Shown: one piece after another, positions 11,880-12,645 of the stretch | Layout: each line of letters begins with the position of its first letter | Numbering within the stretch: position 1 is the stretch's first letter | Source of the DNA: Escherichia coli | Lineage (GTDB): Bacteria > Pseudomonadota > Gammaproteobacteria > Enterobacterales > Enterobacteriaceae | NCBI RefSeq assembly: GCF_003334355.1 | Contig: NZ_QOWP01000048.1 | Strand: one strand, 5' to 3' | Length of the DNA: 19,380 nucleotides | The notes under the pieces: generated by a model | What the model was told of the DNA's origin: nothing | Databases searched by the model: none | Seen by the model: the letters and a program-made list of their open reading frames with translations, nothing else | Position numbers and translations under genes: made by a program

Positions 11880-12645
11880 GTTTAGCAACATATGCGGCTT
11901 GCCCTGAACACCGGGCACCACTGTATTGATGCTCATTTTCCATAGCCATTCCCTTTTGTTCATTACATCCATGTCAGTCTGAGACAGGCCTGAATCCTGT
12001 CAGCAAAGTATAAAACCTTACTTGCCTATGAATATCTACTGACTTTTCAGGAAAAAAGTCATGATTTGATAAAAATCATCAAACTCAAAAAAAAACCGCT
12101 AGTATATTCTGAATATTCCGAATAGTTACGTAGATGAAAATACTTGTCACCACCGCTACTTAATTCCGGTGGGAAATTATTTATTTCCGCATAATCAGCT
12201 ATGTATTATTTAAAACAATTAGTTTGTAAATAATATAAATTGATAACATATCAAATACATCAAAAATACCATTCACAGGCATTATTAATATAGACATCAA
12301 TATAGCAACATCAAATTCCAATTAGTAATAAGATATGCTTTTAAATTGCATGCAAATAATTTTAAATGAGCGTTTTTTGATACTTTAGAGTGTTTCCCAC
12401 CATTTAATATCACTGTGTAGAGTTGATATCACTACAACAGAAACATGCATGTCATTTGTTTACTTCTCTTTTTACTACAGAAAAATTTATCTATTTTTCT
12501 AAGCATCAGTGAAATACTCATAAAGGTAACTATTATGTCTATGCCATTAAGCAATGCCCTTCAGAGTTAAATTATTACAGATAATCACTTCCTTCATCAT
12601 CCAAAAGTCGACAGTGAGTTAACACGTAAACATGAACGTGCACGC
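11880..12645. other. ~770-bp strongly AT-rich intergenic region (iraD upstream / yjiC upstream); probable curved, H-NS-type silenced regulatory DNA
   Basis: By eye well over 70% A+T with many A- and T-tracts (e.g. CAAACTCAAAAAAAAACCG, TTTAAAACAATTAGTTTGTAAATAATATAAATTG). No ORF of 60 aa or more on either strand. Confidence 0.7.

Follow-up and report, generated by a model that had tools for sequence, protein, structure and literature searches.

The AT-Rich Region between iraD and yjiC in a Nissle 1917-Type Haplotype of Escherichia coli: Comparison with the Divergent Control Region Described in K-12

Introduction

Three anti-adaptors, among them IraD, determine how much of the general stress sigma factor RpoS is present. 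Here we analyze the A+T-rich (AT-rich) DNA upstream of iraD in a stretch of 19,380 nucleotides (nt) from Escherichia coli (contig NZ_QOWP01000048.1 of assembly GCF_003334355.1; hereafter the window), in which an earlier reading of the letters alone (the original prediction) had marked 11880–12645, between iraD and a yjiC-like gene, as a spacer of atypical composition. This DNA is very probably the divergent iraD-yjiC control region of E. coli in its Nissle 1917 haplotype, bound by H-NS, equipped with two promoters and controlled by CsrA and DnaA. The biology of the AT-rich region is already covered by published work and by the annotation of current genomes, and the present analysis adds no new biology to it.

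The closest described system is the same locus in strain K-12, where iraD is transcribed from starts at −417 (P1) and −137 (P2) relative to its ATG, in an upstream region termed “unusually large” (Merrikh/Lovett work in bioRxiv 10.1101/2021.05.20.444958). Two small open reading frames (ORFs) between P1 and P2, ORF23 and ORF47, are expressed and have no effect on iraD, and the stop codon of a third, ORF27, overlaps the iraD start (Park et al., 2017, mBio; PMC5574718). CsrA binds GGA sites around the ORF27 ribosome-binding site and represses ORF27, and hence iraD via translational coupling; a hairpin sequesters the iraD Shine-Dalgarno sequence (SD), where CsrA does not bind (Park et al., PMC5574718). 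ORF23, ORF47, and ORF27 are now annotated as ytiC, ytiD, and idlP, and a longer, 33-amino-acid (aa) form of ytiC was named “ytiB” by VanOrsdel et al. (PMC6001520). Treatment of K-12 with azidothymidine (AZT) induces ytiC 260-fold, more than any other gene in the genome, together with ytiD (33-fold), idlP (18-fold), iraD (14-fold), and yjiC (11-fold), in a LexA-independent manner (PMC11228462).

The yjiC/iraD spacer is also entry 4554354_526 among the 78 “promoter islands” of K-12, a class of very AT-rich, anisotropically bendable DNA beside compositionally atypical genes (Panyukov & Ozoline, 2013; PMC3661553). The table of that study gives the yjiC/iraD island as H-NS-bound in the chromatin immunoprecipitation data of Kahramanoglou and of Oshima, and links it with predicted foreign genes. 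H-NS is further reported to inhibit expression of iraD and iraM, as Battesti 2012 is cited in PMC6064147.

Results

The iraD Leader of the Window Matches That of K-12

Coordinates of composition, folds, and motifs are window positions. Within a comparison set of 5,426 complete E. coli genomes, 5,404 match a 2.1-kb query covering 11400–13500. E. coli Nissle 1917 matches the query at 100% identity, and RefSeq annotation was read off this identical locus (window coordinate = locus coordinate + 9899), whereas the base-level comparison used alignments with K-12 (DH5alpha) and with strain ES1. Both Nissle 1917 and K-12 are annotated with the gene order hypT-iraD-long spacer-yjiC-uxuR. The boundaries first proposed for the spacer were wrong, in that 11880 falls inside idlP and 12645 lies 37 codons into yjiC; the true intergenic segment is 11944–12534. 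Composition, periodicity, the positions and identity of the elements, the lesions of yjiC, population frequencies, and synteny within Escherichia come from the present analysis, and promoter activity, control by CsrA, DnaA, SspA, and guanosine tetraphosphate (ppGpp), and H-NS occupancy are taken from the K-12 literature.

The segment 11850–12128, which includes idlP, the DnaA box, all of the GGA motifs, and P2 (Table 1), is base-for-base identical to K-12, and alignment shows the same for P1. P2 is moreover invariant between K-12 and ES1, and nearly so in E. albertii. The −10 hexamers of P1 (TATATT) and P2 (TATACT) each end 7 nt before the published starts, which map to 12280 and 12000, respectively. 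From the descriptions in PMC5574718, the four GGA motifs of the leader would correspond, in order, to the CsrA sites BS1–BS4, with the third overlapping the SD of idlP. The fold of the P2 leader as a whole is no more stable than those of shuffled sequences (z = 0.2).

The idlP-iraD junction has the features of translationally coupled leader peptides with overlapping stop and start codons: the TGA of idlP overlaps the iraD ATG, an overlap identical in K-12, and in the predicted fold the iraD SD is held in a hairpin, which translation of idlP would open. Unlike leaders that work by stalling or attenuation, the regulator in this case, CsrA, targets the ribosome-binding site of the upstream ORF, idlP. 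The idlP gene is 100% identical to that of K-12, and its synonymous divergence (dS) from E. albertii is 0.13 (ratio of nonsynonymous to synonymous divergence, dN/dS, ∼0.9, from 27 codons only), compared with 0.76–0.89 for uxuR, yjiC, and iraD. Because this synonymous divergence is unusually low, the comparison suggests constraint on idlP at RNA or DNA signals rather than on the peptide.

The spacer had been described as carrying no substantial ORF. The ORF list indeed has none of at least 50 aa in the AT-rich stretch, but three annotated small ORFs, idlP, ytiD, and ytiC, occupy its minus strand, and the description does not hold. It is in ytiC and ytiD that the haplotype departs from the K-12 leader: a single-nucleotide polymorphism at 12200 leaves ytiD with ATA in place of its ATG start and, in the overlapping frame of ytiC, changes TGG to TAG, with the loss of six residues. 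The ATA haplotype is found in ∼800 genomes and the ATG haplotype of K-12 in ∼3,000–3,600. Neither the ytiC nor the ytiD ORF is conserved in E. albertii, whereas idlP is.

RefSeq still annotates YtiD despite its ATA start. The long (27/33-aa) form of ytiC has its ATG at 12280–12282, right at the published P1 start, and its translation would therefore require a transcript that is leaderless or slightly longer; Park et al. start ORF23 at a downstream ATG, at 12249. An inverted repeat, TTTGAT-N7-ATCAAA, lies at 12065–12083, over the ytiD stop codon and 65–83 nt upstream of the P2 start. E. albertii has retained the arms around a different spacer, and the divergent allele B described below reads TGAC-AAAA-GTCA versus TGAT-AAAA-ATCA. 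This repeat may be a regulator site, or may have arisen by chance in AT-rich DNA.

Table 1. Positions of the Genes, Promoters, and Sequence Elements of the iraD-yjiC-uxuR Region in the Window
Feature	Position	Strand	Basis
iraD coding sequence, anti-adaptor stabilizing RpoS; ATG 11861–11863	11471–11863	−	RefSeq Nissle 1917 and ORF list
idlP (ORF27), 27-aa leader peptide; TGA stop overlaps iraD ATG (ATGA)	11860–11943	−	RefSeq, ORF list, and PMC5574718
iraD SD, AGGAG, with a fifth GGA; paired in a local hairpin of the predicted fold	11871–11875	−	Motif mapping and fold
DnaA box TTTTCCATA at −81, across the start codon of idlP	11936–11944	+	Motif mapping; function from bioRxiv 10.1101/2021.05.20.444958
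Four GGA motifs: 11995–11997, 11968–11970, 11950–11952, 11939–11941 (−134, −107, −89, −78)	11939–11997	−	Motif mapping
iraD promoter P2: −10 TATACT 12007–12012, start ∼12000 (−137)	12000–12012	−	Published start and hexamer mapping
ytiD (ORF47), 47 aa; start ATA instead of ATG	12059–12202	−	RefSeq, translation, and K-12 alignment
ytiC (ORF23 of Park et al.), MPVNGIFDVFDMLSIYIIYKLIVLNNT, 27 aa, or 16 aa from the K-12 ORF23 ATG at 12249	12199–12282	−	RefSeq and alignment
“Hypothetical protein,” 16 aa, the 3′ part of ytiC	12199–12249	−	RefSeq
iraD promoter P1: TTGATG 12309–12314, 16 nt, TATATT 12287–12292, start ∼12280 (−417)	12280–12314	−	Promoter scan and published start
Most AT-rich core (GC 0.266), from P1 to the yjiC start	12283–12534		Composition
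yjiC (DUF2686) pseudogene; ATG 12535 with AAGG SD, original stop 13319–13321	12535–13321	+	K-12/ES1 alignment
“Frameshifted” DUF2686 pseudogene	12571–13321	+	RefSeq annotation
Perfect 8-bp GC-rich hairpin GCGCAAGG-N9-CCTTGCGC between convergent yjiC and uxuR	13424–13448		Read from sequence
uxuR	13462–14235	−	RefSeq annotation

The Spacer Has the Composition and Periodicity of an H-NS-Bound Promoter Island

The fraction of guanine plus cytosine (GC) is 0.324 over 11880–12645 and falls to 0.294 in the intergenic segment and to 0.266 in the core, against 0.509 for the whole window. In 591-bp windows taken outside the segment it is 0.525 ± 0.035, which places 11944–12534 at z = −6.6, far outside the local range of composition, and confirms the extreme A+T-richness that had drawn attention to the spacer. 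The yjiC remnant, also said to be AT-rich, has a GC of 0.39–0.40 and a GC at third codon positions (GC3) of 0.306, compared with 0.585 ± 0.057 for 16 other ORFs of the window. The “phased A/T tracts” ascribed to the spacer were found in one sense and not in another: AA/TT dinucleotides recur with a period of 10.0 bp, which none of 500 dinucleotide-preserving shuffles equaled (for 11944–12534 and 12001–12534 alike), but the centers of long A4+/T4+ tracts are not phased, since 62%–72% of shuffles do as well.

The extreme AT content and the helical-repeat periodicity of H-NS-bound promoter islands are thus both present in this DNA, which is the same DNA as the K-12 island. A difference lies in transcription, as promoter islands are described as nearly transcriptionally silent, whereas the yjiC/iraD spacer has two mapped and strongly inducible promoters. 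The proposal that the spacer is a nucleoid-protein-controlled regulatory hub for iraD is supported and had already been published in substance, through the K-12 promoter-island listing, the inhibition of iraD by H-NS, and the two stress-responsive promoters.

The promoter of yjiC and an H-NS binding platform presumably lie in the core, from P1 to the yjiC start. A 15-nt block within the core, AAATGAGCGTTTTTT at 12364–12378, is invariant among the E. coli strains and E. albertii, inside an otherwise poorly conserved P1-yjiC stretch, and is a candidate for a promoter element of yjiC or for a regulator site.

yjiC Is a Pseudogene in This Haplotype

K-12 yjiC encodes 276 aa from a start ATG equivalent to window position 12535, and its product matches Pfam PF10887 (DUF2686) from end to end (E = 5e-151). 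With respect to this family (YjfZ/YjiC), the K-12 orthologue is an intact member, whereas the window copy is disrupted and has no intact full-length PF10887 frame. Its codon 12 is TAA (12568–12570) instead of the CAA of K-12, through a C>T change at 12568, and a 44-bp frameshifting deletion between TATCCC direct repeats lies at 13219|13220, beyond which the original C terminus remains readable as far as 13321. Of the 5,426 genomes, 813 have the deletion junction, as counted with a 40-nt query that replaced a 61-nt junction query whose counts mixed partial and split alignments. A 40-mer with the TAA codon was found in ∼806 genomes (587 exact matches; one one-mismatch case that was checked also has TAA). 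Both lesions thus occur in ∼15% of complete E. coli genomes. The dN/dS of yjiC relative to E. albertii, 0.33, indicates a real but weakly constrained, fast-evolving gene, from a family (DUF2686) whose function is not known; searches for YjiC relatives in NCBIfam, PADLOC, and the PDB returned nothing informative.

The ATG at 12646–12648, which opens a residual ORF of 192 aa, is CTG (Leu38) in K-12 and ES1 and is preceded by no obvious SD; from the alignment, this apparent gene start is best read as a new mutation within the yjiC pseudogene. In ES1, ∼12 substitutions are crowded into 21 nt of yjiC (codons 9–16, ∼12560–12580), although the alignment is 97% identical elsewhere; this patch looks like the result of micro-recombination or a template switch. 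The hairpin downstream of yjiC is probably a bidirectional terminator. A terminator scan found nothing, its loop limit of 8 nt having excluded the 9-nt loop of this yjiC/uxuR hairpin.

A Second, Divergent Allele Lacks P1, ytiC, and yjiC

A different arrangement, allele B, is carried by 492 of the 5,426 genomes (∼9%), including UTI89, O127:H6 (E2348/69), and NRG 857C. In these, iraD lies 413 bp from uxuR, and P1, ytiC, and yjiC are absent. Homology to the window extends from iraD to ∼12127 at 77% identity, possibly weakly to ∼12195, and resumes at the uxuR stop codon. The dS between the iraD genes of allele B and the window is 0.82, as large as between species, and the allele B IraD protein is 86%–94% identical to the IraD proteins of E. 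whittamii and three further non-E. coli species representatives, whose loci share this structure. The common allele, in which P1, ytiC, and yjiC are present, is that of ∼90% of E. coli genomes and of E. albertii. One may tentatively ask whether the distal half of the region (P1, ytiC, the 5′ part of ytiD, the AT-rich core, and yjiC) is a swappable module, an idea that we find possible yet somewhat doubtful; if it were true, the module-less allele would lack P1 and offer H-NS a different platform. Should allele B be an old polymorphism, whether introgressed or balanced, the wiring of RpoS stabilization to stationary phase and DNA damage would not be the same in all lineages. Allele B is the only part of the locus for which we found no description, and the original prediction did not concern it.

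The 3′ side of iraD is a rearrangement hotspot too, because a ptsP-like gene, a ptsP remnant, or hypT alternate beside iraD. NRG 857C and E. albertii have a ptsP-like gene there instead of hypT (with dhaL also adjacent in NRG 857C), and KC-Dl-1 and Escherichia sp. E1V33 have only a ptsP remnant between hypT and iraD.

Discussion

Taken together with the K-12 literature, the comparison leads to a model in which two sigma-70 promoters would serve iraD, P2 in all growth phases and P1 upon entry into stationary phase, both responding to ppGpp and to replication stress. On the leader transcript, CsrA bound to the GGA sites by the idlP ribosome-binding site would block translation of idlP and with it the coupled translation of iraD, and DnaA-ATP would repress via the box at −81. 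H-NS, together with StpA, would coat the AT-rich, 10-bp-periodic DNA and keep iraD low, and presumably holds the divergent yjiC low as well. The control region would in this way integrate starvation (ppGpp), replication stress (DnaA, SspA), carbon status (CsrA), and nucleoid silencing (H-NS). Given the base identity of the elements, the K-12 mechanisms would be expected to operate alike in the present strain.

Several points weigh against this assignment. The functional evidence comes entirely from K-12, and the K-12 description carries over only in part, since ytiD lacks its ATG and ytiC is shortened in this haplotype. The evidence for H-NS is second-hand, consisting of the table in PMC3661553 and the citation of Battesti 2012, and the high-affinity H-NS motif TCGATAAATT has a single one-mismatch site in the spacer (12484–12493), with window counts not above chance. 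A simple consensus scan also found promoter-like sites to be no denser than composition predicts (6, compared with 7.2 ± 3.0 in composition-matched shuffles); the original definition of promoter islands, by an excess of such sites, used another algorithm and a genome-wide background.

The original prediction further noted that such AT-rich DNA typically marks horizontally acquired or tightly silenced regions. On a rival reading, ∼12128–13461 would be a recently acquired foreign islet silenced by H-NS as a xenogene. The GC of 0.35 over 11944–13461, the low GC3 of yjiC, the several predictors that flag the segment as foreign (as cited in PMC3661553), and the 492 genomes with an allele lacking it all fit such an origin. 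However, E. albertii is collinear over uxuR-yjiC-spacer-idlP-iraD, at 73.7% identity over 2,864 bp and with a spacer GC of 0.287, and dS relative to this species is similar for yjiC (0.76), uxuR (0.89), and iraD (0.86), from which it follows that yjiC was inherited with its neighbors since the E. albertii split. Moreover, there is no tRNA and no annotated integrase at the locus, no yjiC homologue was found in phages, and yjiC matches in the plasmid set fell only on mislabelled chromosomes (records of 0.37–4.9 Mb). A scan with an IraD alignment that covered one genome per species found iraD only in Escherichia. The atypical composition and the presence/absence polymorphism of the islet therefore stand, whereas its recent transfer, which we judge extremely unlikely, appears largely refuted by these comparisons; acquisition before the split of E. 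coli and E. albertii is possible. Alternatively, the AT-richness might have no architectural role and reflect only neutral mutational bias in DNA under weak constraint, here the long leader, the young ORFs, and a decaying gene. That ytiC and ytiD are unconserved outside E. coli and altered in this strain, that yjiC evolves fast and is dead in 15% of genomes, and that 12283–12534 is mostly poorly conserved relative to E. albertii are consistent with this proposal. Yet E. albertii retains a GC of ∼0.29 despite ∼26% sequence divergence, the 10-bp AA/TT periodicity lies above that of every shuffle, and the published H-NS occupancy and H-NS-dependent iraD expression favor a role for the composition, which makes a purely neutral origin unlikely.

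It had also been suggested that the spacer hides an independent element, either a leader peptide at 12535–12570 that controls yjiC or a small or antisense RNA missing from the annotation. An AAGG lies 8 nt upstream of the short ORF, but the ORF consists of codons 1–11 of yjiC itself, in the same frame as the ORF at 12646 and 111 nt from it. In K-12, ES1, and E. albertii the frame runs on through Gln or a different sense codon, and it is short in the window only through the C>T nonsense change, and the ORF was accordingly rejected as a leader peptide; it is not of the translationally coupled kind. The expectation of a leader peptide is borne out at the other end of the spacer, by idlP, on the minus strand and coupled to iraD. 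Support for an RNA could be sought in a sliding fold scan, in which 17% of windows have z < −2 and the best values (z = −3.4 to −3.9, better than shuffles) lie on the plus strand at 12150–12269, in a cluster of four small, mostly AT-rich hairpins at 12150–12255. These are AT-rich inverted repeats that are not conserved in E. albertii, and their GC-rich stem varies among E. coli strains, and we rejected them as evidence for a small RNA. A permissive Rfam scan of 11000–14000 gave only chance-level matches to eukaryotic families (best E 0.3–0.6). The small RNA is thus unsupported, and a hidden independent element of either type is very improbable. An H-NS-bound iraD-yjiC control region, as described for K-12, remains the reading that we prefer.

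The comparison corrects the original prediction on three points: the ORF at 12535 is what remains of the 5′ end of a pseudogene, the true leader peptide is on the other strand, and the islet is old and not a recent import. The dead yjiC, the lost ytiD start, and the divergent allele without P1 could matter when stress responses are compared among lineages, e.g., for the probiotic strain Nissle 1917.

A few further observations concern the wider locus and window. Strain Z0117EC0013 (NZ_CP098219.1) has an IS1A inserted in the matched yjiC-iraD stretch, a further independent disruption of the locus. A second low-GC gene of the window, at 5142–6113, encodes 323 aa with a GC of 0.427 and a GC3 of 0.444. 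Finally, a 605-bp contig of a Bacillus coahuilensis assembly (NZ_ABFU01000118.1) has the gene order idlP-iraD-hypT and encodes an IraD with 98% identity to the E. coli protein of the window; the presence of this contig in that assembly is almost certainly contamination.

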